Part shown: piece after piece, positions 28,775 through 44,508 of the stretch
Position numbering within the stretch: position 1 is the first letter of the stretch
How the letters are laid out: every line of letters starts with the position of its first letter
Source: Amoebophrya sp. A120
Lineage: Eukaryota; Protista; Dinoflagellata
DNA: 64,000 nt
Reading direction: 5' to 3'
Assembly (NCBI GenBank): GCA_905178155.1
Contig: CAJINV010000013.1
Location: 982,344-1,046,343 of the forward strand
The notes under the pieces: generated by a model
Database searches by the model: none
The model's input: only the letters and a program-made list of their open reading frames with translations
Told to the model about the DNA's origin: nothing
Program-made: the position numbers and the translations under genes

Positions 28775-30190
28775 CTATCTGGAGTCGGTGTCTCTTAGAC
28801 ACTCGCAAACACTTTCAGAGCTCCAAACAACTGGCTTCCTTCCCGCCGGTAAGCGGCTCACACGCGCGCCCGCTTGAAAGCGGATGAGCTGAGCCAACGA
28901 ACATAGGGCAACTAAGACAAGCCCAGACAAGGACATGGGCCACCGAGGATCAGCGCCGGTGAGGGCGTGGGGCAGATGGCCGGCCAACACACGCCGCCAA
29001 GCCTGAGCGTGCGAGGCAGGGGGGCGGGCATCCAATAGATATGGCGCGCGGCCGGCGAAACCAAGCAACCAGCGCCCGGCATTCCGGCCAGCAGGCCCAC
29101 CCCTGAGAAGGCCGGGGGGACCACCTGGGCCACGCCCCTGCTAAGAGCCCGGCTGGTGACAGACCTACCTTCTCTCTGGCCCGCAAGCCCGCCCCATACA
29201 CACACCCCGCCGCCGCAGCGCCTGCGTGCGGGCAGGCGGCAAAGAAATGGGCGGCGCGCACGCCTTTCGGTGGCATCGAGATGCACAATCCCCACGAGGC
29301 AGTCTCGGTCTTGGAGTTGTCCGCGCGATTGTTTCCGGCAAGCTCCACTTTCCGGTCGAAAATGACGCCAATAAGAGCGCCAAACTCTTTCGGACTGAGG
29401 CCGTCGGGCCGGATCACGAGGGGGGGCGCCTTCTCAGTCCCGGCCTGGACTCCTTCCCGGCGCAGGGAGTATGTCTGCTGTAAGACCATCACGCTGTCGC
29501 TGGGATTGGGACCGGAACGGTCCGCGAGAGGGCACATACAGGCCCGCGAGCGCGTCGCGCCCCGCATCATTTTCCCCGCGGGGAGGCTGCCAAGCAGGCG
29601 GCGAACGCCCCACCCAGGTCTGTCCAAAAAGCTGGCGGACCCTGTGCACCAGCCCCGCCCCCTTCGTTCTGGCTTGCCGCAAGCCCGCAAGCGGGGGCGC
29701 CCCCTCGGGCTTCCCCGTCGGTGTATCCTCGCACCAGTGGGCGCGCAACACTTCCGGCCATACTTCGCGACGACCGCCAGGCCCGGCATCTTGGTCGTGT
29801 GTCTCAGGTAGTCGCTGACCAACCTTCTGCAATCAGCCATCTCCGTCCGGCCCCCGCCGGGAGGCCACGCGCGCGCAAAACTCGCCGCGCTTTGACTCCG
29901 AGGCCTCGAAGCGCGCGTAGTCCAGTTCGGTCGGTCCCAAGCTCCGCGGAGAAGATTCCAGGCCCCGCGGCCGTAGCTAGCCCCGAGCGCCCGAGGCCCC
30001 CCGCCACCCTACGCAGAAACTCGCGCAAGGCCTCTAGTCGCCCCCGCTCGATCAGCTTCAAGTCAAAGGCTTGGACTAATGAATCTAAGCTTGGACCACG
30101 TCCACGCCTAGAAACGAACAACTCCAAGGACATGAAAGACGGACAAAAGAACAACAAGGGCTTTGCGAGAGAGGTGTGAGTCTCTCGATC
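28775..30190 (-). mobile_element. GC-rich unclassified insertion, possibly a truncated retroelement
   Basis: Abrupt GC shift, frameshifted minus-strand ORFs (29804-30133, 28950-29840), purine tract then TGTCAC near 29160, short hairpins at both edges; no domain recognised. Confidence 0.3.
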
Positions 30191-30921
30191 GATGTTTCTC
30201 TTTGCTGTATGTTTCACCTTTTCACATAATTCTCGAAGCTGTTTACTGTGCTGCATTTTGTGTTTTGTTTTTCATCGCGATCAGCCTCAGGCATCTACAT
30301 CCTAGTGGGAGATTGATGAAGTAGACATCACAATACAACTTCAACTTGTTGCAATCGCACAGTCATCAGGCTCCACCAGCGATCGGTACGATCTGTAAAA
30401 ACTGAAAGAATGCGAAATCACAAAAAACACTGGAAGCCAGGTCGATATTATAATTCCTTGTTCTGCTCGGCCGCCCAACGCAAACGGCCCCGGCACCTTG
30501 AGTATCCAAACGTAAAATAAAGGTTAGCAGACCAGAATCTCAACTGCAGCAAATCGTCTCAACGTTGAGCCAGAAGGTAGCCAACGTTGGGAAAAGTGTC
30601 TCAACTACTCAACTTAGTAGAAGTAGAAGTAGTTCAAGCGTACAAGTAGAAGTAGAAGTAGGTGGGGCTAGATCGATCTAGAAGGAGTCGCGGTAGAAAA
30701 GCTGCAGCAGAAGGGAAAGCACAGTGACAAGCAGGCAGAAGATGGAAAGAGGGCAGCGCCGTCTCTTTCTTGTCTCTATCTGGCTGTGTCTTTTCTCTCT
30801 CTCTTGTCTCTATCTGGCTCTCTCATCTCTTTCTCTCTCTACCCTCTCCTTCACCCTCTCGCACATCCATATATTTGGTGTGTCAGAAATCTAACTTGAA
30901 GAGACAAAGAAGACAGGACTT

Positions 30922-31035
30922 TTATTGCTCGACTGCGCTTTAATTTTGTCCACCGATTGCGACGATCCGTTTGTATTGCTCGACTGCGAAGATCCGTTTG
31001 TATTGCTCGACTGCGACGATCCACTTTGTCCACCA
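30922..31035. repeat. Short 27-bp imperfect tandem repeat in the MULE 5' region
   Basis: Repeated TATTGCTCGACTGCG and GATCCGTTTG units. Confidence 0.7.
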
Positions 31036-31348
31036 GAGCCCGATCCATGTTGTCCAAAGAACCACAAGAAGGCCCTTGTCGTTGCCTTTTTCTTTTTTTG
31101 TCATTTTCTACATGAGGCCCGCTTGTGGTTCGATGTCAGAACCACACTTCGACCTCCACTGCGCGCAGCTGTCCAGTGAGCAGCGCCCCTCTCTTTTCTC
31201 CAGCCAGGTTTGTTGTAGTTAGTACACTGAGGCAGGTTGTGTTGTAGTTAAGTATAGCCATCGGGCTCGAAGATACAAAGTCACAGAGAACCACCATCCG
31301 CCTCCGGGGCATCAATTACCTAGCGCGAGCTGCTGCGGCGCGAGAAGC

Positions 31349-34300
31349 ATGAGCTCCGCAGAAAAAGACCCGCCGGCGCGTGGGCGCTCCGCAGCACCCC
31401 CGGGCAGCCAGCACTCCGTATCCGACTGCGTCGAGGCCGGCGGCGGGCTGACTCCCTTGGTCGCGAGGATCAAGAAATGCAGCACATCCGTCGGGAAAGA
31501 GCTGATCATGCGCGCGATCGACAAAGGGGAAAAGGAGTTTGAACGTTTGAACCTGCGAGAGGCGTGCGGGAAGCGGCGTCTCTTCGCCAATGACCTTGAC
31601 GACATGCTGAAGCCGCAGGCGGACGAATTGCTGCAGGCCTCCCTACCAGCGCAGGGCCTTCTTCCCAAGCAACAGCGTCTTCTTCCGGGTCCGCTTATCA
31701 AATGCAAACATGTCCGGGTCTGGAAAATTTCGGGAGTTTGTCATGCAAATTGTACATGGCCTCCCATGCCTGTGATGCATTCTCTAGCAACACAGATTTC
31801 TCACGGGTTTGCTCATGTCTATTCTGCATGAGAAGTGCTCTGTTTGAGTAGCATCAATCACGCAATACAGATCTGCAGCAGTCACGCAATACAGATCTTT
31901 GTGTGATCGACAGCTAGCATCACAAATCCCATTCTACTTGCCAGACCCAGACATATTTGCAATGAATGCCGCTTGTGAACATGCAACAACTACCGGCGGC
32001 GTCGAGTGGTAGTAGTAGCAGCTACATGACGGGAGTGCCACTGATGTCGAACATCAAGCAGCAGAAACTTGCGACGGGCAGCAAGCAGAACTTGCTCAGG
32101 GACTATCAGCAGGAGTCTAATTACGTGCAGCGCCCGGCAGGTTCCTCGCGCCTGGACATGATCACGGGCGAGCAGGGGTCGGGATTGTTAGGCTCGGAGA
32201 ACCAGCAACAACAGAGCAAGGGTCAGTCATCGCGGAGTGCGAAACGGCCGGCCGGTTTCGCCTCGTCTTCTTTATCCGCGGACCATGTTGCCCCGGGCAT
32301 GTTCGTATGAGTTGCAAATATGTCTTGGCCTGACAGGTCCGCTGGACTTTGTATATGCATTCGCTGCATTCCTGAAAAACAAATATCTGTGTTGCGCGAG
32401 CGGCAAAAGAGCAGCTTGCTTCATCATGCAGAAATGCAGTCGGTATCTGTAATGCGTTCTAGGCATCAATCTGTAATGCAGTCGCGTCTGTTCTTGTAAT
32501 GCAGAAGTGCAATCTTGTCATGCAGAAATGTATCACAGGTCTGTTTCCAGACCCGGACATGTTTGCGCTTCATATTTTGGCGACCTGGATGAGCAATATT
32601 TCCCGGGCGATGACGAGTTTCACCCCTCAGGACTGGACGGGGCTTTGTCCGAGCAGAGCAGTGACGCAGAATTTGAAAAGTACGATGGGATCAGTAGCTT
32701 CATCCGAAAGCGCATCAAGAACGCAACGCAGGGAGGCAAGAAGAAGAGGAAGGACTCGCTCGACCTCGACTTCGGGGATGGTTTCGGCAACGGAGGCGAG
32801 GGCGGTGAAGGCGAAAACGGTAACGACAAGCCTATCGCGGAGCTGGGGGCGAACTTGAAAAGCAAAAAGATGCAGCAGGGGGGCGCAAAGAGGAGGAAGG
32901 TAAGACCTCTACTCTAGGTCTCTCGGCTCGGTTCTAGATCTTTCTGGCCGGCATCTTTAGGACAGTCCTTGTTTTTTGTCTTCCGCGATCGATTAATGAA
33001 GAAAATGACCCTGTTCTCTTGTTACACAAACCGCAAACGAACCAAAACACAGAAGAACGACCCGCCGCTGCTGGAAGCAGATGGGGAGCACGGAGATGCC
33101 GCCCCGCCCGCGGCGGGCGGAAGAAGGAAGAACGACCCGTACGTTGTCAAGATGGTGGTGCCCCAAACCGTCCAGGCCACGGCCGCGGAGTCCCTCCGCG
33201 AGGGGGAGGGAAGCGACGTGAGGTTCAAAGCGGTGGTGCAGAAGTGGAACAGTGAGCGGCTTAATATGACGCTGCTGAAACCTCCGACGAAAGACGGCAA
33301 GCGGACCTGCTACCTGAGGTGCAGGCTATCGATTGCAAGCATGCCTGGGCCTGGATTAGTGGGCGGAGGGCTTTTTGCTCTTTGCCAAAGATCGGCACGC
33401 TACACTCACATGTGAGACACAGACATAGCATGACCATTTGCCACCGGATGGGTGGTGGTTTTGTTTCTCTTTGCCTAAGATTGGCACGCTAAGTGAAGTC
33501 TTTAGACTTAGCGCGACGAATTACCATCTTCCAGACCCAGACGCGTTTGCATGGAATACAGAGACCCGAAGAGCAATGTGAAGGTTGCGAGCGAGCGAGC
33601 TGGTTGCCAGTGCCTCGTGCGGTGCACCTGGCACAAGGACGCGTTTGAAGCCTACTGCTCAAAAGTCTGCGAGTATGTCGAGGCCGAGCGGAGCCTGCGC
33701 GACGTCCTCCGTCCGGTCGAGCACATGGAACCACTGCGGGCCGCCAATGTGCTAGCTGCGCAGCATGGGAACCCGGAAATATCAAATGCAAAAGTGTGTT
33801 GGTCTGGAAGCTTGAAACTCGTGACGCTAACTTTGGACACTCGAAAAATCTGTATTTTGTGACCACACCGAGGAGTTTAGTTTGTGCTACGCGGGGAGGG
33901 CGTTTGTCATGCGGGGTAGGCATGAGGAATCTGTGATGCGCGGCCGTGCATTACAGACACCCTGGATCATGCAAAACATGCATGACAAATCTCAAAATCT
34001 TCCACACCCAGACATTTTTGCATTTGATAGGACGAACTGGTTGACAAGTTGAACTCGATCAGGCGCAAAGACCGCCGGCAGAAGGCGAAAGAGCGGGAAG
34101 GTTTGGGGGCCGACGAAATTGCAGCGCGGGAAGCCGTATCAACTGGAAACGTGTCAGGGTCTGGAGGGACAACGCGAGCTATCTCTTTTATCGCAACGAG
34201 CGATATCTCGGACATTCGCAATCGATTTCGTCCTCGCGGGGGGGTTCCATCTCGATTTCGATCTTTGGCACCCCTGCATATATCGCTTATATGCATGACA

Positions 34301-37300
34301 AAACCGCGCCTCGCATTCTTTTCCGACTTTGATCTCTCTCGCGGGTCCGTCTCGGTCTAGAGCCTCGTCCGACGATGCACAACGCGAGTGGTTTCTAGTA
34401 GTTTTTGACGTAGACAGGGAGCTGGTGATGGCCCGCCGGGTTCCTCGCGGTTCGTTGGCGTCCTTAACCCGCCGACCGGAGTCGGCGACTTCCGTTAATT
34501 TCAACCGGGAAATTAAGGGAAGTCGCCGACTCAGGTCGGCGGGTTAAGGACACCTTGAAGAACCCGGCGGGCCGCTAGTTGGCTTCCTACTATCAGGGAG
34601 CCCTGCTTTGCTTTCAGAGGTTCCACTTTGCTCTCTGACTACTGTGCTTTCAGGGTACTTTGCTTTCAGGGTACTTTGCTTTCGTTCGCTTTCAGGGTCC
34701 TTGCTTTCGTTCTCTTTCAGGGTACTGCTTTCAGGGTACGATAGCAAGGGCGGAAGGCCTCCAGACGGAAGCTCAAGCCATTTGCGCTTTTTGTTAGATT
34801 AGGTTCTAGATTACTTCGCTCGGCTTATTGTTGTACTTCTCTTAAATTGAGAACGTTTTACAAAAGGCAGTGGCTTGAAAGATCCAGAAAAATGAGCGTC
34901 CTCGTCCTATCTGACGAACAAGGCTTGCTTTTCTTTTAGAAAGTGGCCCCCTTACCTTTCAGTAAAGATCCAGAAAAATGGAGAACCCCGCCCATTCTAG
35001 ACAGGAACAGATGGGTCCACATCATGCGGGAAGGGCGTTTGTCATGCGAGAAAGCTCGTAACGTTCCAGACCCAGACCTATTTGCAACGCATATGCCCGG
35101 GTCGGTGAGGTGGTCCGTCGCTTTCAGCAGTACATGGAGCAGGAGACTCCGTTGACCCAGCTCCCGGTTGAAAAACAGGACGCCAGCTCCGAAAAGATGC
35201 AGACGGTGAGCTATGTCCGTGCGGTGCCGGTGGACGAGAACATGCTGCCGAAAAAAACCGCCATCGTTTCGAGCGCAGTGTGGGAAAAGAGGTCGCGCAA
35301 CTTGGTGCGAGTTTTGAAGGGGGAGCTCGACGCGGACCCGCGCGTGGCGAAACCGGAAAACCAAAAAGGCCTTTTGCCGGTGGAGCAGCCCGATCGATCT
35401 GAAAAAGGACTTGCGGCGCAAAGAAACGAAGCGGCGGCGACAAAGTTGCCAACTATTGGCATCGTTGTCGATGCCACGTACGACAGTATTATGCATACTC
35501 ATCACTTCTGCTGTTGCGTTTCAATGATGTCGCCCTGGCTTCTAATTTTGGTAGCCTCCCCCTGGAAACCGCCAGGCTAGACTCAGAATGAGTGTCGTGG
35601 TACTTAGCATGCAGCCGCATACAATGAGAATCGAATGAATTCAAAAACCACAGTCAACCGCGACAACTGGAGTTATTCCTGTGCGAGTTTGACCTGCCTG
35701 CACCGGGACGACCGCGGAATTATCAGGAGAACGTCCCAGCGCATCGCCGCGGCCTGGTCAGCGGGGGAAAAAAACGAAATGTGGAAGGACTTATGGGCGC
35801 ACTGCAACAAAATTCTGGGTGGTGTGTTGACCTCTGGCGCGTTTGAAGTTCGGGTGATGTGCGACGAACATCTTTCCATCTCGAAGGCGGTGACGGATTC
35901 GTGGGGGAAGCATTGCGTGATCCTGGACCCGCGCCATGTGAGTGCCACCGCGCAGCGAGTTACGTCCGACCCTATCAAATGCAAAAGCGAGTGGGTCCGG
36001 GAGAACACAACCCGTGGCGTTGCGTTTGGATGTCTAGAACATTGGCGCTGCATGAGCAGCAAAAGGAGTCTCGTTTTTGCTGCACGGGGAGGGCGTTTCC
36101 ATTTGTCGTGCGGAATAGGCATCAAGCATCCCTCAAAACAGCTGTAATGCTAGTGCATGCATCACAGACAATAGGGCTGGCTCATGCAAACCGTGCATGA
36201 CATGGCTCGTCAGAATCTCCCAGACCCAGAGATGTTTGCATTTGATAAAACACGGCGTCCAGCAATTTCTCCAAATATATGTACGGCGTGAAAACATGAG
36301 ACGCGCCCGGCTTGGAAGAACCTCCCGACGGTGAAAGAAGGTTTGCCATGCAGGACCGAGGGCAGGGGGTGGACCGACCCGGGGCAGGGGGTGGGCCCGG
36401 GGCAGGGGATGGGCCCGGGGCAGGGGATGGGCCCGGGGCAGGGTTTGGGCCCAGGGCAGGGGTTTGGCCCAGAACCCAGGGCTGGGGTTGGGCCCAGGGC
36501 AGGGGCTTGGCCCGGGGCCGGGGTTGGGCCCAGGTTGGGCAGGAGTGGGGCCCAGGGCAGGGGTTGGGTCCAGGGTAGGGTCTGGGCCACGGGCAGGGTT
36601 TGGGGGGGCCCAGGGCAGGGGTTGGGCCTAGGGCAGGGGTTGGGCCCAGGGCAGGGGTTGGGCCCAGGGCAGGGGTTGGGCCCAGGGCAGGGGTCGGGCC
36701 AATGGCAGGGGATGGGCCCCGGGCAGGGGATGGGCCCTTAGCAGGGGTTGGGCTCGGGGCAGGGGTTTGGCGGGCCCAGGGCAGGGGCTGGGTCCGGGGC
36801 AGGGGTTTGGCCCAGCGGTTGGGCCCCCCCCCAGGCAGGGCGGGGGGGAGAGTGTGGGATCGCCGCTGGCTCCCAGCGTTGGTTCTTGCAGGCCATCTGC
36901 GATTCGTAGACAGCCTGAGCGGTCGCAAGGGTGCTATGTGTCGTTCGTGAAGTCCAAATCTGTATCTTAGTTAAGACGCAGTATGAGCCAGCGCCACACG
37001 CTCCCGAGTGTTCCCTTCCAAAGCCGGGCCGCTTTGTATTGCATAGCGCCGCCAGTGCCCCAATGAAGCGACCGCCCGTCTTTGGGCCTTCTACGGCGCG
37101 GATAAGATAACCAGCAGCACCAGCGACAAGTGGATTGAGAAGCTGATCACCTGGGAACAAGACGACGCATGGATCGGCTGCGACTTTCACCCAGGCTTGA
37201 CGGTGCCACTGACGAATAGCATCGCAAGCAGCCTGCCGGGTCTGGTTGACGGGTATTGGTCCCAGAACAAAGAGAGAGGCTTCAGAACGCTCAAAGGCGC

Positions 37301-38026
37301 TTGCTGCAACAGTAATTTGAACACTTTGCCGACGACTGAAGCCATGGCGCAGCTGTCGGACGCAAATTTTGCGGTGGACAAGTCTTACAACAGCAAGGAG
37401 CAATTTTATGCTGTGCCTGCGGACGTTTTCGATGTCGAGTTCCAGAAGCAGGGGCAGGCGATTTGGGACGAGTCGAAGGACCTCTACTGTCCGGATGCCG
37501 ACCGTTTCGTGTTGCGCAAGTGCGGAACGGCCCGCCCCGCCCAGACGCAGAAGTGGTTGGAAGCCGCCGGCCGCCTGCTGGAGCCGGGGAAGATGGGGCC
37601 GATGATGGAGGAGGACTGGTGCTCGTTTTGTCTGGTTGCGCGCAGTGAAAGCGTGCGACTTCTTGCAGTTCGCTCCGGCGACATTTCAGTTTTGGTTTTG
37701 CGTTGCGTGCGATAGAAAATGCAAAACAACGCAAAAGAAGAACCACCAATCTCCAATACAGGTACACCGTCGGCGTGCGGTACAAGGGGCCTGCGCCCGA
37801 GTACAAGCCGATGCTCAGTTCTAACGCGTTCTTCGAACTTTTGCAGCACTGCGTCACGTCTTCGGCTTTCGTCGTACACCCCTGCTCGTGTGAGGATGCG
37901 ATGGTGAAGGGTCAGTGCGCGCACTCCATTGCCCGGCTCGGCTGGGAGTTGGTTCTCGACTTTCGCCATACGGCGCCGTCCGATCGATGTCGCACCCCCT
38001 TGCGCGGCTCACAAAGGTGCGCGTGA
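31349..38026 (+). CDS. MULE transposase (DDE) with N-terminal Cys motif and SWIM finger, split by about 10 introns
   Basis: CYLRC|RDP...GCQCLVRC; GIVVDATY (~35470); VRVMCDEHLSISKAV...LDPRH (~35860-35935); QNKERGFRTLK (~37270); CSCEDAMVKGQCAH (~37885). Most introner excisions restore frame; a few joins unresolved. Confidence 0.82.
31696..31968. mobile_element. IR-introner family A inside transposase
   Basis: TSD CCGCT; removal gives LPGP-LVNMQQ. Confidence 0.88.
32306..32574. mobile_element. IR-introner family A (diverged) inside transposase
   Basis: TATGAGTTGCAAATATGTC...GACATGTTTGCGCTTCATA; removal gives PGMF-GDLDE. Confidence 0.78.
33327..33558. mobile_element. IR-introner family A (diverged) inside transposase
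   Basis: TAT...CTGGGCCTGGA / TCCAGACCCAG...ATA; flanks CAGGC/CAGAG allow GC-AG. Confidence 0.78.
33780..34029. mobile_element. IR-introner family A inside transposase, reverse orientation
   Basis: TATCAAATGCAAAA...TTTTGCATTTGATA; removal gives HGNP-DELVDK. Confidence 0.88.
34137..35093. mobile_element. Long (957-bp) family A introner containing a 92-bp palindrome
   Basis: Ends TATCAACTG...GGGTCTGGA / TCCAGACCCAGAC...CATA; removal gives REA-RVGEVVRRF; hairpin at 34460-34551. Confidence 0.78.
35973..36247. mobile_element. IR-introner family A inside transposase
   Basis: TATCAAATGCAAA...TTTGCATTTGATA; interior resembles 33780-34029. Confidence 0.85.
36359..36850 (+). repeat. G-rich 18-bp minisatellite (GGGCAGGGGTTGGGCCCA)n, G-quadruplex-prone
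   Basis: More than 20 degenerate units of G-runs in a transposase intron. Confidence 0.9.
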
Positions 38027-38349
38027 CGCAGCGGGCCCCATGTTGCTTGCGGGGGACCGCAGCACCGCTGCCGCGGCCTCCGCCGCAGAACTGGAACTCT
38101 GAGGCCGCAAAGCCGCCCCCCCCTTCGTTGCAGAGGTAGATTCTTCGGAAACAACCCCTATGGGCTGGGCTTCCTATGTTGCCCCTGCACTGGCCTGCCA
38201 CAGGAATCGCGTAGGGGGGCGCCCTTGCCTCCGCGTCCGCCTGCCTACGCGGACGCGCAGGGCAGCGGGCGCGCCGCCTGAAGCATTGTAGCAAGCCCCG
38301 GCGGACGCCGCGCAGCGGCGGGAGGCAGTCCGCCCCCTGACTTCCGCAA

Positions 38350-39305
38350 GCAAAAGCGGCCAAAGCAAGGCGGCCAAAGCAAGGCGGCCAAAGCAAGGCG
38401 GCCAAAGCAAGGCGGCCAAAGCAAGGCGGCCAAAGCAAGGCGGCCAAAGCANNNNNNNNNNNNNNNNNNNNNNNNNNNNNNNNNNNNNNNNNNNNNNNNN
38501 NNNNNNNNNNNNNNNNNNNNNNNNNNNNNNNNNNNNNNNNNNNNNNNNNNNNNNNNNNNNNNNNNNNNNNNNNNNNNNNNNNNNNNNNNNNNNNNNNNNN
38601 NNNNNNNNNNNNNNNNNNNNNNNNNNNNNNNNNNNNNNNNNNNNNNNNNNNNNNNNNNNNNNNNNNNNNNNNNNNNNNNNNNNNNNNNNNNNNNNNNNNN
38701 NNNNNNNNNNNNNNNNNNNNNNNNNNNNNNNNNNNNNNNNNNNNNNNNNNNNNNNNNNNNNNNNNNNNNNNNNNNNNNNNNNNNNNNNNNNNNNNNNNNN
38801 NNNNNNNNNNNNNNNNNNNNNNNNNNNNNNNNNNNNNNNNNNNNNNNNNNNNNNNNNNNNNNNNNNNNNNNNNNNNNNNNNNNNNNNNNNNNNNNNNNNN
38901 NNNNNNNNNNNNNNNNNNNNNNNNNNNNNNNNNNNNNNNNNNNNNNNNNNNNNNNNNNNNNNNNNNNNNNNNNNNNNNNNNNNNNNNNNNNNNNNNNNNN
39001 NNNNNNNNNNNNNNNNNNNNNNNNNNNNNNNNNNNNNNNNNNNNNNNNNNNNNNNNNNNNNNNNNNNNNNNNNNNNNNNNNNNNNNNNNNNNNNNNNNNN
39101 NNNNNNNNNNNNNNNNNNNNNNNNNNNNNNNNNNNNNNNNNNNNNNNNNNNNNNNNNNNNNNNNNNNNNNNNNNNNNNNNNNNNNNNNNNNNNNNNNNNN
39201 NNCAAAGCAAAGCGGCAAAAGCAAAGCAAAGCGGCAAAAGCAAAGCAAAGCGGCAAAAGCAAAGCAAAGCGGCAAAAGCAAAGCAAAGCGGCAAAAGCAA
39301 AGCAA
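38350..39305. repeat. Simple satellite flanking an assembly gap (N 38452-39202)
   Basis: (GCGGCCAAAGCAAG)n on the left, (CAAAGCAAAGCGGCAAAAG)n on the right. Confidence 0.9.
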
Positions 39306-39559
39306 GTTCTACCTTTCTGGGGGTGTGTGAGTGTCTTGGCTCTCCCTCTTGTTCGGGGTTCGCCTTTCTCTCGGGAGGCTCGCTGGCGGGCCTGGCCCGC
39401 CCCCCTCCCTGCGAAAACAGCCTGCTGGGTTGGCTGGTTGCAAAAGGGAGAGCGCCGCCCGCGGGGGGCGTCGCCCGCGCCGAATGTGAAGCGCGCCAAG
39501 GGTTGCAGCGTCGGTCGTCGCAAGGCGGTGATAGGTCCGCTGACGTGCTTCAGCCGTAG

Positions 39560-41731
39560 CTTGGACTACCGAAAACAGGTCACGAGCCGGGGCACGTGTC
39601 TCTCGCCTCGCAGCCGGGGCGCGAGGTCACAGCAGGAGAAAGAAGAGGAGAAGAAGCGCTGTAGCTTCATCGTGTCGGCCAACAAGAAGCTTCGCGACCC
39701 TGCTACGCCCTCGAGTGAAAAAGACAAAATTTTGACCGGGCTCCAGTCCTACAGGTTGCGGTTTGTGATACAGACGCTGGGATGGAATGAGACAAAGAGC
39801 TTTCTGAAACACCTTGACTCGCTCCAAGTAGTGAAGGCCAAGAATTTGCACGCGGATTGGGAGGGGCAAAAGACGAAGGAGATCGCTTTGTTTAAACTGA
39901 AAGCACTGCTTGGGCGCTTTCCGAACGTATATACTTGCCTCCCCTGTTGCCCTTTCTTACTTTGCCTCACGTGATGGATGGAGCATTTTGTCGTAGGTGT
40001 ATTATATATTGTGGCCCGTTTTTAATTTTGCCGTAGGTGCATTACAAACATAGTATCAAATGCAAACGCGCCTGGTGGGTCTGGAGGGTTGCGCCTTGTC
40101 GTGCTAAATGCGAAACATGCGAAAAACCTGTGTTGCCTGGACACCAGCAGCCCTCTTGTTTTGCCAATTTTAAAGGGAATCTCTCATGCAAGATAGGCAT
40201 GGCCAGAGATCTCACATAATTTGTCATGCTGCATACCAGACCTGCACCTCGCGGGTCGGGGTCATGGACAACCTGCATGACAGATCTGGCATCCTTCGTT
40301 CCAGACCCAGACAGATTTGCATCTTGGTGAACACTCGATATTTGATGACTATTTCCACCGCGGCCGCCCGTGAATAACTTAGCAGGGCCGTGTGCTCTAA
40401 AACCATAAATAGAGATCTTTGATTGAGTTTGAAAACCTTTATCAGGTGCCGGAGAAGGTTCAGGAGGCCGCGCGGGCCGTCCGGCTCGAACCTTTCGGAA
40501 AGATCACGGAGCCCCTCGAGATCATCCAGTGCAGGGCAGTACCAACTGCAAATATGTCTGGGTCTGGAACGAGTGGGATCTGTCATGCTAGTTTCCACCA
40601 GCGCAGATCTGCATTGCAGGAGCGGTCGGAGGTGTTGCGCAGATCCTAGCCTCCCGGAGAGGGCATTTGTCATGCAGGACAAGTATGAGCAAGCCTGCGC
40701 GAGAGTTGTGACGCTAGACCTAGATCAAGAGCCCGCGCCACATGTATTACGGGTCATGCATGACAAACACAAACCTCACTTCTCCCCGCACTTCTGTTTA
40801 GCATGACAAACACAAACCTCCCCAATCTTCCAGACCCAAACATCTTTGCAATGCATAGGCAGAGGCGGCCTCTTCGCCGGGCCAGATGTACGACTTGGAA
40901 TTGCGGCTGGACTCCCTTTCGTTCCGTTGCTCCTGTCCGTACCACGCCGGTTTTTGCAAGCACCTGGTCCGCATGGCCGACGCGTACAACGCTGTTCATT
41001 TTAGATTTCTTTGCTTTTCAAATACCTCTCAAGCTCAGTAAGTCCCTGCTAGAACGTCGCTGGATCTGCATGCCTACTACAATTGTCTTCGGAGAAGTAT
41101 CTTCGCCCCGCGCTCGATTGTCTATCTTCGCAAACTGCCACCTATCAGGTTATATGATTGGGCCGCGCTACAGCCGCACCCCGTGCATATATGAAAGGGC
41201 ACAACCCCCCCTCCCGCTCTCCCTTCTTTGCCGTACAAGATTCCGAGTCGAGCCTTTGCCTGTTAGCATTGTCTGCATGACAGATTGACTCCGGACTTCA
41301 CAGCAGCCCTACAACCTTGTAGGATTTTTTCATGCAGAAGCTGCACCTTTGCCAGCGCTTGCGCTGCTGCTCATGCAACACAAATGAGGGGGAGGGGGGG
41401 TTGTGCACTTTCATAGTATGTGGGGAAGACCCAGGACGCGCTCGACATGTTTTCGCCGGCTGAGAAGATGGTTTTTGATCTGCTCAACTCCACGGACATG
41501 CCCCTCGGGAAAATTTCCGCGGTTGACATTTTGATGGGCAAGGGGACAAAGCTGAAGGACTCAGTCTACCGAGGCCGTGGCATGCAGATCCCGAGCGCCG
41601 AGAAGACGCTGCACGCGGCTGTCGACAACTTGGAGAAGACCGGCGTCTTGAGGAGGATCCCGATCAGAGCCGGACTTCCGCACACAAGGCTAGTCGTTGC
41701 TCGTGGTCTCGGTGGGCGCGGGAAGAAGTAG
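39560..41731 (+). CDS. MULE-borne protein region: helical N-terminal part + SWIM zinc finger + RQC-like winged helix (separate gene or transposase C-terminus)
   Basis: Spliced: ...LLGRFPN|VHYKH|SIFDDYF...IIQCRA|EAASSPGQMYDLELRLDSLSFRCSCPYHAGFCKHLVRMADA|LYDWAALQPHPVH|VGKT...LGKISAVDILMGKGTKLKDSVYRGRG...AVDNLEKTGVLRR...HTRLVV. Confidence 0.7.
40054..40329. mobile_element. IR-introner family A
   Basis: TATCAAATGCAAA...GGGTCTGGA / TCCAGACCCAGACAGATTTGCAT; right end degenerate. Confidence 0.75.
40540..40857. mobile_element. IR-introner family A
   Basis: TGCAAATATGTCTGGGTCTGGAA TIR; perfect TSD GGCAG. Confidence 0.88.
41190..41415. mobile_element. IR-introner (TATGAAAG-GCACAACCCCCCCTCCC family)
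   Basis: 26-bp TIR with one mismatch; flanks GCATA/GTATG. Confidence 0.85.
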
Positions 41732-43145
41732 TCGCCTTTGGGTCTATGTCTTTCTTCCGGATTTACTAGTCGGCCAGCTACGTTTACACTTTCTTCTCCA
41801 AATCACCGACGCTTTTTGCGCCTCTGTAGATGCTTCCTTTTACTGTTGTGCCCAGTGTTGCGACTTCTTACTACTACAACTCGTTTTGTTGTTGATATGT
41901 TAGCTCTAGATCCTATCTCTCTTCGGACGTCAGCACCTTGCTATACTTTTAGTGACTTCGACACTTTCTACCGTTACGGCATTTTATGACTCTATTACTG
42001 GCGTCTTCACCACATGCTACGGCGCTTTTCTTCTGTTTATTCGCTCCTTTACTCTGACTCTCTCATGTCCAGACATAAAGATGTGCGCGAGCCTCAGTCT
42101 CGAGAACGAAGATGAACCTATCCACCAGATTACGTTTTTGCAATACACATTCGGTCTGTCTAGCTTTCGTGTAAAGCTTCCAGTGCTTTCATCGTTGTAA
42201 TTCTCTTAAAACGCAACCGATTTGAGTGTCTTCAGCATACAGACTGCAGCTCGTGCTTGGATTTCAAGCATAGATGACGCCTGTGAGTAGAACGCACAGA
42301 GATCGACGACTGTGGCCGTCAAGTATAAATGGCGCTCTACTCGGGAGTACAGTGACGGAAGCTAGTAGACGGCGTTGCTCCTAGCCGTATTTGGAGCCAG
42401 TTTCGGTATATTGGAGTCTGGCAGCAAGAGTGCAGCTCGTAGATTCTGAACATTTCTGCTTTGACGGTTAGGAACATGAAGCAAAGCCGAGCGAAGGGCT
42501 TGGAAACGTAAACGATATCGGCGTGCAAGTATGCACTGAGAGGGGCAAAACTCCGCGGGCCCTGAGCTGGCTGTAGCCCTTAGAAGTATTGCAGAGGAAC
42601 ACGAAGCTGCAGGTGCTTAGTTTCGTATGACGATTGCTTAGGGGCTTGTGCGTGCTTGGAGTTTTTTTCCATTCGCGCGCGCCCTTTCAGCAACAAAAGT
42701 AAAAGGGGTCCACAGGAAACACGCCAGACCTCTCGCCATCATCGAGTGTGTCTGCTACCTGTCCCCGACAAATAAAAAAAAAAGAAGTTTACATGTCCGA
42801 AGCAAAACAATACTCAGTAAGGAGGTACGACGCGCAGCGACACATCGTTGAGTCGCGCGCGCGATCGTTGATGCGCAAAGGTTGAGGCGCGTCAGAACGT
42901 TGAGATGCAAACGTTGAGATTCTGGTCTGTTAACCTAAAATAAACCTGTTTCTTCGGGTTCGTACTAGTAGCTGCACTCGATAACATAATGTAGTAAACA
43001 AAGTAAGTAAGTAGACCAGCAAAATCTTCATTCGCTTCGTAAAGGTAAACATTTTGCTACTGACGCGCAGAAAAATCGAAGTTCGCGGTGAAGGATCAGG
43101 TGGACAGTAACATCCTCCCTCCGGTATTCCAGCCCCAAAAGCCGT

Positions 43146-44508
43146 TCATGGAAATGTCTTCTTGGTCATGATTGTGTAAAAGTCCTCTACTGAAATCTCG
43201 CCATTGCCCATACTGTCTGCGTATTACGAGGAAAAGTGCCAGGGTCGCGCAGTGAGATATTCATTTTCGAAGTAGATCTTTCTTCTACCCGCTAGGCATG
43301 CAGCTTTGTGATTTTGAGAGCTTTTGTAGTATTCATTGATATGTTTACTTACCGCATCAAACAAGAACGTTGGAATATCTTCGATACACCAGCGTGAAAA
43401 AGATTCTACAACCGCGACGCTGCTCACTGAGCTTTCCCTGACACTTTTGCAATGCATAGAGCGCGCTCGATCATTTCCCTCAGTTCCTCGTCGGACATCG
43501 TTTCACCTTTGTAGTATAGGTACATTTTCATACATAGTATTTGGCCGTCTCGTCAGAACTCGGTTTTCTTGTTCTGAAAATAAGAATTATCGCTTTGTTT
43601 CTATTTCTATATCGATGCGGAAAATGCAAAGCCAATCAAATACCGAGTTCCTTCGCCACTCTCTTCAGGTTTTTCGAAGTGATGGCTCCCGTCTTATCGT
43701 CGTCGAAAAGCGCGAAAATTTTGGAGATGCCTTCCCGCGTCTCCTTGTCGCCGAGCTTGGCGGTTATTGCGTCCAGAAATTGCTCGAATTCGATCATGCC
43801 AGACATATCTCGGTCCAGGTCCTGGATCATCTGGAATACCTGGGTTTTTGGAGTCAGTTGTATGGAAAATTGCAGCATCAAACCACCTATGAAGTCTAGT
43901 TATCGGCGTCGAAAAGAGAATGCGAGAATGGAATCATGATCATGCTCCTCATCATGCATGTTGTTCATGTTCAGTGGTGGGCAGCATTAGATAGAAAAAC
44001 CGTTGTACCGTTGGATTTTTTGAGTCGAAGCCCAAGCTTTGCATTGCGTGTTTCAGCTCCTTGGGGTCGATGGTGCCGCTACCTTTGAGCAGTTTTATTT
44101 GTTCTTCTTTTTCTCGATCGTCTCTATCACTAAAACTAGATCTAGATTCACGACAAATTATAAGCCTCGCATGAAATGAAGTTGTAATTCAGCGCATGCG
44201 CATCAGAAACAAGTTTGAGTGTCATACCTGTTGTGTCGAACAGGTTGAATGCTTCCCTGATCTCGTCGATTTCATCCTCCGTCAAACCTGGTCTCTCGTA
44301 CCTGGAAAGAAGAAGCAGTCGATTTTTCATATCATGCACCAGCAGCTTCCGCAGCACTACGGGTCGTCGTCGTGTCATGTCATACACAGACTTGCTCACG
44401 CACTTCCTGCACGAAAAAATTGTAGTTCGTGTGCCATGTGAAAATGTCTATATACGTCAGTTTTCTCCTGCCACCGCCTCGGGAGCCAGCGCCTGCTCGT
44501 GACGCCAT
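43146..44508 (-). CDS. Centrin (EF-hand; alveolate [10 protein letters not shown] type), multi-exon
   Basis: [18 protein letters not shown]|[24 protein letters not shown]|[20 protein letters not shown]...[22 protein letters not shown]|[15 protein letters not shown]|[23 protein letters not shown]. Confidence 0.93.
43222..43458. mobile_element. IR-introner in centrin
   Basis: TAT...AAAAGTGCCAGGG / CCCTGACACTTTT...ATA; shared GCG flank; removal gives ERA-D. Confidence 0.8.

Follow-up and report, generated by a model that had tools for sequence, protein, structure and literature searches.

Ends and Copies of the Element

We analyzed a 64,000-nucleotide stretch of contig CAJINV010000013.1 from the dinoflagellate Amoebophrya sp. 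A120 (hereafter the window, with positions counted from its first base) and found at 30522–42935 a 12,414-bp element that is probably a real Mutator-like element (MULE) and a recent insertion. Its transposase-like gene is interrupted by many introns and likely continues into an unusual tail. A first-pass annotation of the same DNA had read it as a Mutator-type transposon carrying a second SWIM finger and an RQC winged helix of the kind found in RecQ helicases. The ends consist of terminal inverted repeats (TIRs) flanked by a target-site duplication (TSD):

30513..30521, left copy of the 9-bp TSD
30522..30544, + strand, left TIR of 23 bp, starting with GG
After the left TIR, up to about 30613, short subterminal CTCAAC/CAACG repeats
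42913..42935, − strand, right TIR of 23 bp
42936..42944, right copy of the 9-bp TSD

The TIRs are complementary at 22 of 23 bases and the flanking 9-bp repeats are identical, in agreement with the 23-bp TIRs and perfect TSD described in the first-pass annotation. Both lengths fall within the ranges given in the available text of a MULE survey (TIRs of 14–500 bp and TSDs of 8–11 bp; PMC6446971; here and below, cited papers are represented by the available portions of their text). The search for further TIR pairs with 9-bp TSDs that the annotation had proposed was run in the 64-kb window, for repeats of at least 23 bp with at most one mismatch and an 8- to 10-bp flanking repeat, and the element was the sole pair.

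One contig of sequencing run X1, which is possibly the source of the assembly and not independent of it, starts at exactly base 30522, the left end of the element. In the same run, depth was 44–48 in the flanks and 38–45 in the core and downstream region (41–45 in the core), and it was raised about 1.3- to 2-fold, with scattered sequence differences, over much of 30522–32200, 34305–34958, and 42250–42627; these read-cover comparisons left out the stretch 36341–39309. The contig start and the raised depth with scattered differences point to one partial sibling copy sharing the left end from 30522.

Three other runs, X3, X4, and X5, come from one sample of one study, a different sample from that of X1, and are RNA by guess. 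Low-depth contigs of X3 and X5 at 31276–31938 differ from the window and partly resemble an X1 variant; they may derive from the sibling.

Introners and the Predicted Coding Frame

Most introns of the element are introners without GT-AG ends, which the first-pass annotation had overlooked. A 30-bp dispersed motif occurs in inverted pairs about 230–320 bases apart (957 in one pair), both inside and outside the element. The pattern TAT+7+AAA, the end motif of A120 introners (Farhat et al. 2021, PMC7789003), fits 16 of the 24 ends of the 12 pairs examined, and 12 of the 18 ends inside the element; the motif by itself thus suggests an Amoebophrya host of the A120 type. The hairpin introner sequence has many repeats in run X1; inside the element, hairpin introners lie at:

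31696–31968, hairpin introner
32306–32574, hairpin introner
33327–33558, hairpin introner
33780–34029, hairpin introner
34137–35093, hairpin introner
35973–36247, hairpin introner
~40054–40328, hairpin introner
40540–40857, hairpin introner
41190–41415, hairpin introner

Removing the introners together with five flanking bases left at least 27 open codons at all eight junctions, against three of eight with three bases and two of eight with four, although the count is crude as it runs on into the next intron. With the introners, the GT-AG introns, and three less regular introns removed, the joined exons formed a stop-free frame of 1,447 amino acids, or of 1,388 in a simpler version, with the following parts:

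31349..34136, + strand, exons 1–6, a low-complexity N terminus and a Cys/His motif (33308 to ~33750), the six exons being separated by four introners and a single GT-AG intron
35099..38016, + strand, exons 7–11, transposase-like core; boundaries of introns 35487–35624 and 36276–37050 uncertain
38017..39553, + strand, proposed GT-AG fusion intron
39554..40539, + strand, exons 12–15, coding, of no known family and without Met; exons 40037–40050 and 40334–40369 tentative
40863..40993, + strand, second SWIM exon
41417..41731, + strand, last exon, with the stop at 41729–41731

A leave-one-out codon model trained on exons 1–11 ranked the model frame first in 16 of 18 exons; the other two have 7 and 11 codons. 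Trained on exons 1–11 alone, it gave the downstream exons 12, 15, 16, and 18 scores of +20, +9, +12, and +14. Among the introns tested for coding bias, 13 of 14 scored at most 0.01 per codon; the other, 37619–37761, scored 0.14, so its donor may sit further on.

Some candidate exons were discarded. Exon 17 was dropped for a codon score below zero, and an exon at 41053–41189, which needs a 15-nt intron, and its alternative at 41053–41148 were dropped with codon scores of −0.9 and −2.3; a single GT-AG intron at 40994–41416 was adopted in their place. The 15-nt GTAAGT…AG at 41038–41052 is such that its splicing would delete an in-frame stop, and the exon following it has no coding bias. Within introner 34137–35093 lies an insert (34305–34958) with a palindrome of 46-bp arms (34457–34554) and tandem repeats of 16 and 25 nt; it has about twice the single-copy depth in X1, one X1 contig ties it to the left end of the element near 30731, and no TIR/TSD pair was found when looked for in it. 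The proposed 775-nt noncanonical intron contains, at 36378–36815, an 18-nt G+C-rich minisatellite in 23 copies. Rfam gave no matches in 29500–44500.

The 5-bp repeats flanking eight introners inside the element match at 27 of 40 bases, compared with 57 of 60 for 12 introners outside it, the two sets having been chosen by different scans. As the TSD of the element is perfect while its internal introner repeats have decayed relative to those outside, the last move of the element likely came after the gain of its introns. Outside the element, at least 12 more TAT…ATA introners with near-perfect 5-bp repeats are found within 2629–60115.

Putative Transposase Core

The core region carries the following motifs:

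35470, D655
35863, D740
35926–35937, DxxH (D761–H764)
37257, W853
37338, E880, candidate third acid, on the basis of spacing only
37883–37924, + strand, first SWIM-like motif

The first-pass annotation had claimed the DDE motifs of MULEs together with SWIM: the two D residues, the DxxH, and the first SWIM-like motif are in place, but the third catalytic acid was not confirmed. In the MULE Muta1, residues D214, D283, H307, W401, and E419 are required for activity (PMC5225508). The second D and the H are 24 residues apart in both proteins (D740–H764 in the model and D283–H307 in Muta1), while the H–W spacing is 89 in the model versus 94 in Muta1 and the distance from H to the candidate E880 is 116 versus 112. 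The Mutator-type assignment is thus supported by the ends, the TSD, the spacing of the motifs, and the shared first base of the sibling, but not by any profile.

A profile of 13 IS256-like proteins scored −2.3 bits on the core, with 178 of 1,000 shuffles as high, and the HHalign alignment fell off the catalytic motifs. AlphaFold2, run on exon 8 as a single sequence, gave a model (pLDDT 54) with the order strand, strand, helix, strand, as in the corresponding part of an RNase H fold; fold searches with this low-scoring fragment returned unrelated proteins. The first finger has the CxC-xn-CxH motif and reached 5.8 bits against a prokaryotic SWIM profile (18 of 2,000 shuffles as high), with no match to Pfam. 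The N-terminal Cys/His motif is presumably FAR1/WRKY-like, and Pfam searches of its single exons gave no match. Word-index searches among longer proteins recovered no homologues of exon 8, the second SWIM, or the last exon; a metagenome contig search recovered none for exon 10 or the last exon. NCBIfam gave nothing meaningful on 10 segments, PDB sequence searches no relevant match, and a protein Atlas search no result.

The copy may be catalytically dead or no longer expressible, having last moved in trans or long ago. The unclear third acid, the decayed internal introner repeats, and a core that seems to be single-copy in X1 by its depth are what such a copy would show; set against them are about 1,390 stop-free codons of uniform codon bias, a perfect TSD, and TIRs differing at one base, and on balance we regard a dead copy as rather unlikely.

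Second SWIM Finger and Proposed Fusion

The second SWIM finger claimed earlier is supported:

40928–40963, + strand, second SWIM motif with the short, prokaryote-like spacer CxC-x7-CxH

It matched Pfam SWIM (PF04434) with an E of 0.0015 and 18.4 bits, slightly below the cut-off of 19.6, and scored 26.7 bits with none of 2,000 shuffles as high against a profile of our own; that profile comprised 31 prokaryotic SWIM stretches, four loci of which were chosen as matches of this finger, and it is biased toward it. Twelve weak plasmid matches (best E 0.2) included eight annotated SWIM proteins, mostly haloarchaeal. The likeness to prokaryotic SWIM proteins is confined to the finger.

The splice proposed in the first-pass annotation is compatible in phase: its donor (38016/38017) and acceptor (39553/39554) form a canonical GT-AG pair that keeps the reading frame. 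The annotation had overlooked that the intron contains a 751-base gap of Ns (38452–39202), flanked by tandem arrays of 14 and 19 nt. No in-frame Met occurs between the end of the gap (39203) and model residue 1249. Since the downstream exons are biased toward coding and lack a Met, their translation would have to begin further upstream, where the transposase offers the closest start. Judged from the sequence, one fused protein of transposase and SWIM–winged-helix tail is likely.

The tail region could instead be a second gene in its own right or a fragment captured from the host, comparable to the cargo of Pack-MULEs and unfused to the transposase. Without use of the donor, the transposase frame would end at its own stop (38024–38026), and the 1.5-kb interval includes unsequenced bases; extra open reading frames are common in MULEs, an example being a diatom MULE with a UBR ligase gene, and the resemblance of the second finger to prokaryotic proteins stops at its edges. 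A separate gene would, however, lack an in-frame Met ahead of 190 coding-biased codons and would leave a canonical, in-phase donor and acceptor unused, and X1 shows the region just once at 90% likeness, which leaves no close host copy. We find this arrangement unlikely. Runs X3, X4, and X5 do not cover the core or the downstream exons, which is not evidence of silence. Raw RNA run X8 gave no reads even for the host exon and says nothing about expression.

Last Exon and the RQC Question

The last exon encodes a predicted winged-helix-like domain with a weak, collinear resemblance to RQC. The motifs noted in the first-pass annotation are present where it had placed them; of the RQC winged helix it proposed, the weak collinear resemblance and a generic winged-helix hint remain, but not a match to an RQC profile. 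HHalign aligned the exon with RQC over 60 columns, anchored at G-x5-D-x-L-x-G, Y-x-G-x-G, and L-x3-G-x-L positions, with a probability of 2% and a score of 16.4, where shuffles averaged 11.0 and 4 of 200 reached that score. An RQC hidden Markov model (HMM) gave 0.8 bits, with 175 of 5,000 shuffles as high and unrelated frames of the window scoring higher; the profile excluded 80 close enterobacterial RQC loci. Pairwise z scores against 42 RQC sequences had a maximum of 5.4 and a median of 1.0, MAFFT did not recover the RQC register in the second half of the exon, and Pfam RQC (PF09382) gave no match. A similar bacterial RQC profile gives true BLM RQC domains just 18–19 bits and may therefore miss a diverged RQC.

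For the structural model of the exon (pLDDT 42), about 30 of the 48 VIA results are winged-helix domains, which points to a generic winged helix; no RecQ chain was found among the 48 VIA results or those of Foldseek, which at this pLDDT excludes nothing. HMMER returned no matches at E ≤ 0.001 among 1.84 billion representatives, and tblastn returned six plasmid and three phage records at E 3–10, none annotated as recQ. Pfam scans of the model in two sets of segments (14 and 13) matched no helicase family, the 751-base gap being unread.

A true RQC derived from a RecQ helicase might hold on to branched or hairpin DNA while the element transposes or a gap is repaired. The collinear anchors, the best pairwise z, the predicted helices (14–24, 35–39, and 61–74), which fit, and the weakness of the bacterial profile on BLM leave room for such a domain; the HHalign probability, the HMM score exceeded by unrelated frames, the median z, the lack of a Pfam match, and the register lost by MAFFT speak against it, and we hold this origin to be possible but doubtful. 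A RecQ origin of the predicted winged helix is unproven, and the domain should not be called RQC before an improved profile or structure backs the name. The earlier idea of a captured DNA-structure-binding module may serve as a hypothesis.

Host Gene and Skipping of the Element

The element sits in the 3′ untranslated region (UTR) of a host gene on the opposite strand, a setting that the first-pass annotation had overlooked. The gene, to the right of the element, encodes EF hands (Pfam E 6.5e-10), and we take it to be centrin-like. From right to left, the features are:

43146–43148, − strand, stop of the EF-hand gene, with coding exons up to ~44450
42957..43145, − strand, part of the host 3′ UTR that precedes the skipped stretch
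30499..42955, − strand, stretch left out by the main host junction, 12,457–12,458 nt, or 34–35 nt without the element
30208..30498, − strand, last host 3′ UTR exon, past the element

Contigs of X3, X4, and X5 cover 42957–43200 and 30195–30498, and in X5 a loose run of T before 30208 corresponds to a minus-strand poly(A). Among the loose-end joins listed across the element were 30498/42956 (X3) and 30498/42957 (X3, and X5 from both sides), with minor joins at 30511/42939 (X3 and X4) and 30520/42941 (X4). These differ from a precise empty site, which was not among the junctions listed for X3–X5, by −34, −35, −4, and +3 bases; none of the four has GT-AG ends and three lack microhomology. Successive X4 contig depths of 610, 119, 22, and 7 suggest that the 30498 junction predominates, with depth to be read with caution. 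Its 3′ cut falls four bases past an ATA, a post hoc observation expected by chance about 1 time in 20. X1 contigs run unbroken from the flanks into the element at both ends.

Splicing is likely the best fit to these junctions. Footprints of DNA excision in a fraction of the culture, or jumps of reverse transcriptase over a hairpin of the TIRs, could also yield four different junctions without GT-AG ends, the two element ends being able to pair (co-fold −75 kcal/mol, no shuffle control) and the runs being presumed RNA from a sample other than X1. Muta1 excision is ~90% precise where TSDs are present (PMC5225508). The absence of a precise empty site among the junctions listed, the lack of microhomology at three of four, and the position of the main 3′ cut past an ATA count against footprints or jumps, which we consider improbable. 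With the element taken out, 34–35 nt (30499–30521 plus 42945–42956) would be left of the main host intron, which may be a very short native noncanonical intron or one made by the insertion.

Interpretation and Comparison with Known Systems

The explanation that we favor, with reasonable though not strong confidence, is a Mutator-family cut-and-paste transposon whose spliced transposase of ~1,390 residues ends in a second SWIM and a predicted winged helix and which the host splices out of a 3′ UTR. In such a system, the old hairpin introns would leave the transcript by a noncanonical host splicing route. Binding of the subterminal repeats would fall to the N-terminal Cys/His domain, and cleavage at the TIR ends, with their joining to targets at a 9-bp stagger, to the DD(E) core. 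The tail may act as an accessory DNA- or protein-binding module. The copy inserted in the 3′ UTR of the centrin-like gene would be removed, mostly with 34–35 flanking bases, as a 12.4-kb non-GT-AG intron; this likely splicing by the host would explain why the insertion is tolerated.

Several points weigh against this explanation. The W–E880 spacing is 27, compared with 18 in Muta1, which leaves the third acid uncertain. Pfam scans of 14 and 13 model segments gave no MULE match, the DDE domain being split among single exons in them. The role of the SWIM–winged-helix tail is the least supported step. Extra domains are common in MULEs, which limits the surprise of finding one here. We regard as real a Mutator-like element with an unusual tail and a gene broken up by introners.

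Like MULEs such as Muta1 of Aedes aegypti, the element combines TIRs, a 9-bp TSD, the D-D-(C/D)xxH-W order and spacing with a candidate for the final E, a SWIM-like motif past the core, and extra cargo, and MULEs often carry extra domains or open reading frames (PMC6446971). It differs from them in having no profile match, about 16 mostly non-GT-AG introns, and a second prokaryote-like SWIM with a predicted winged helix. The main text of the survey contains none of the terms "winged," "RecQ," "two SWIM," or "dinoflagellat" (PMC6446971), and no MULE with an RQC or two SWIM fingers was found in the literature searched, most subscription journals being outside the search. A MULE of Phaeodactylum (bioRxiv 10.1101/2023.01.02.522487) is similarly a protist element with SWIM, a 9-bp TSD, and an extra captured module, but is 3.7 kb long, with TIRs of ~200 bp, a UBR-type ligase as a separate open reading frame, and demonstrated mobility.

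The internal introns resemble A120 introners in their TAT+7+AAA ends and short flanking repeats, and the host's skipping of the whole element likewise disregards GT-AG. The element itself, with GG…CC ends, a 9-bp TSD, a length of 12.4 kb, and a coding sequence, differs from the TAT…ATA families and, given its ends, is unlikely to be their mobilizer. AcademH transposons carry an open reading frame for a RecQ-like superfamily 2 helicase. The element is like them a DNA transposon with a possibly RecQ-related part; unlike them, it has no helicase domain found in its model, and it bears the 9-bp TSD and the core motifs of a Mutator element.

One noncoding Mutator-type introner family is listed for A120, family 65, with a length of ~627 bp, TIRs of 42–46 bp, and four copies (Gozashti et al. 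2025, PMC12130899). As far as the description allows comparison, it shares with the element the Mutator type, GG/CC termini, a TSD of 8–9 bp, noncanonical 3′ splice sites, and the type of host, whereas the element is 12.4 kb long and protein-coding, with 23-bp TIRs. The element TIR matched in none of the 14 supplement files of that paper, in which long cells are incomplete. A far-reaching reading would make the element an active Mutator lineage with a prokaryote-type SWIM and a RecQ-derived RQC, expressed only through noncanonical host splicing and shielded from selection, as pairing of its ends would allow the splicing machinery to excise all 12.4 kb from host transcripts, and thus an autonomous giant introner and the missing mobilizer of the Mutator-type introners of A120; we judge this highly improbable.

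Farhat et al. reported putative transposases in A25 alone, with none in A120, and took the missing A120 transposase as evidence against a transposase-driven spread of introners (PMC7789003). A full-length transposase-like gene split by introners shows how such genes could escape notice, and the introner-removal rule offers a route to finding more. Should the host junctions be splices, the noncanonical route would span 12.4 kb and use several cut sites, which bears on how these introns are removed. The SWIM–winged-helix tail, if true, would add a new architecture to the MULEs; descent from an RQC, if true, would link it to structure-specific DNA binding.

To the left of the host poly(A) site, at 28953–30271 and without a Pfam match, lie two long minus-strand frames of 352 and 155 codons.

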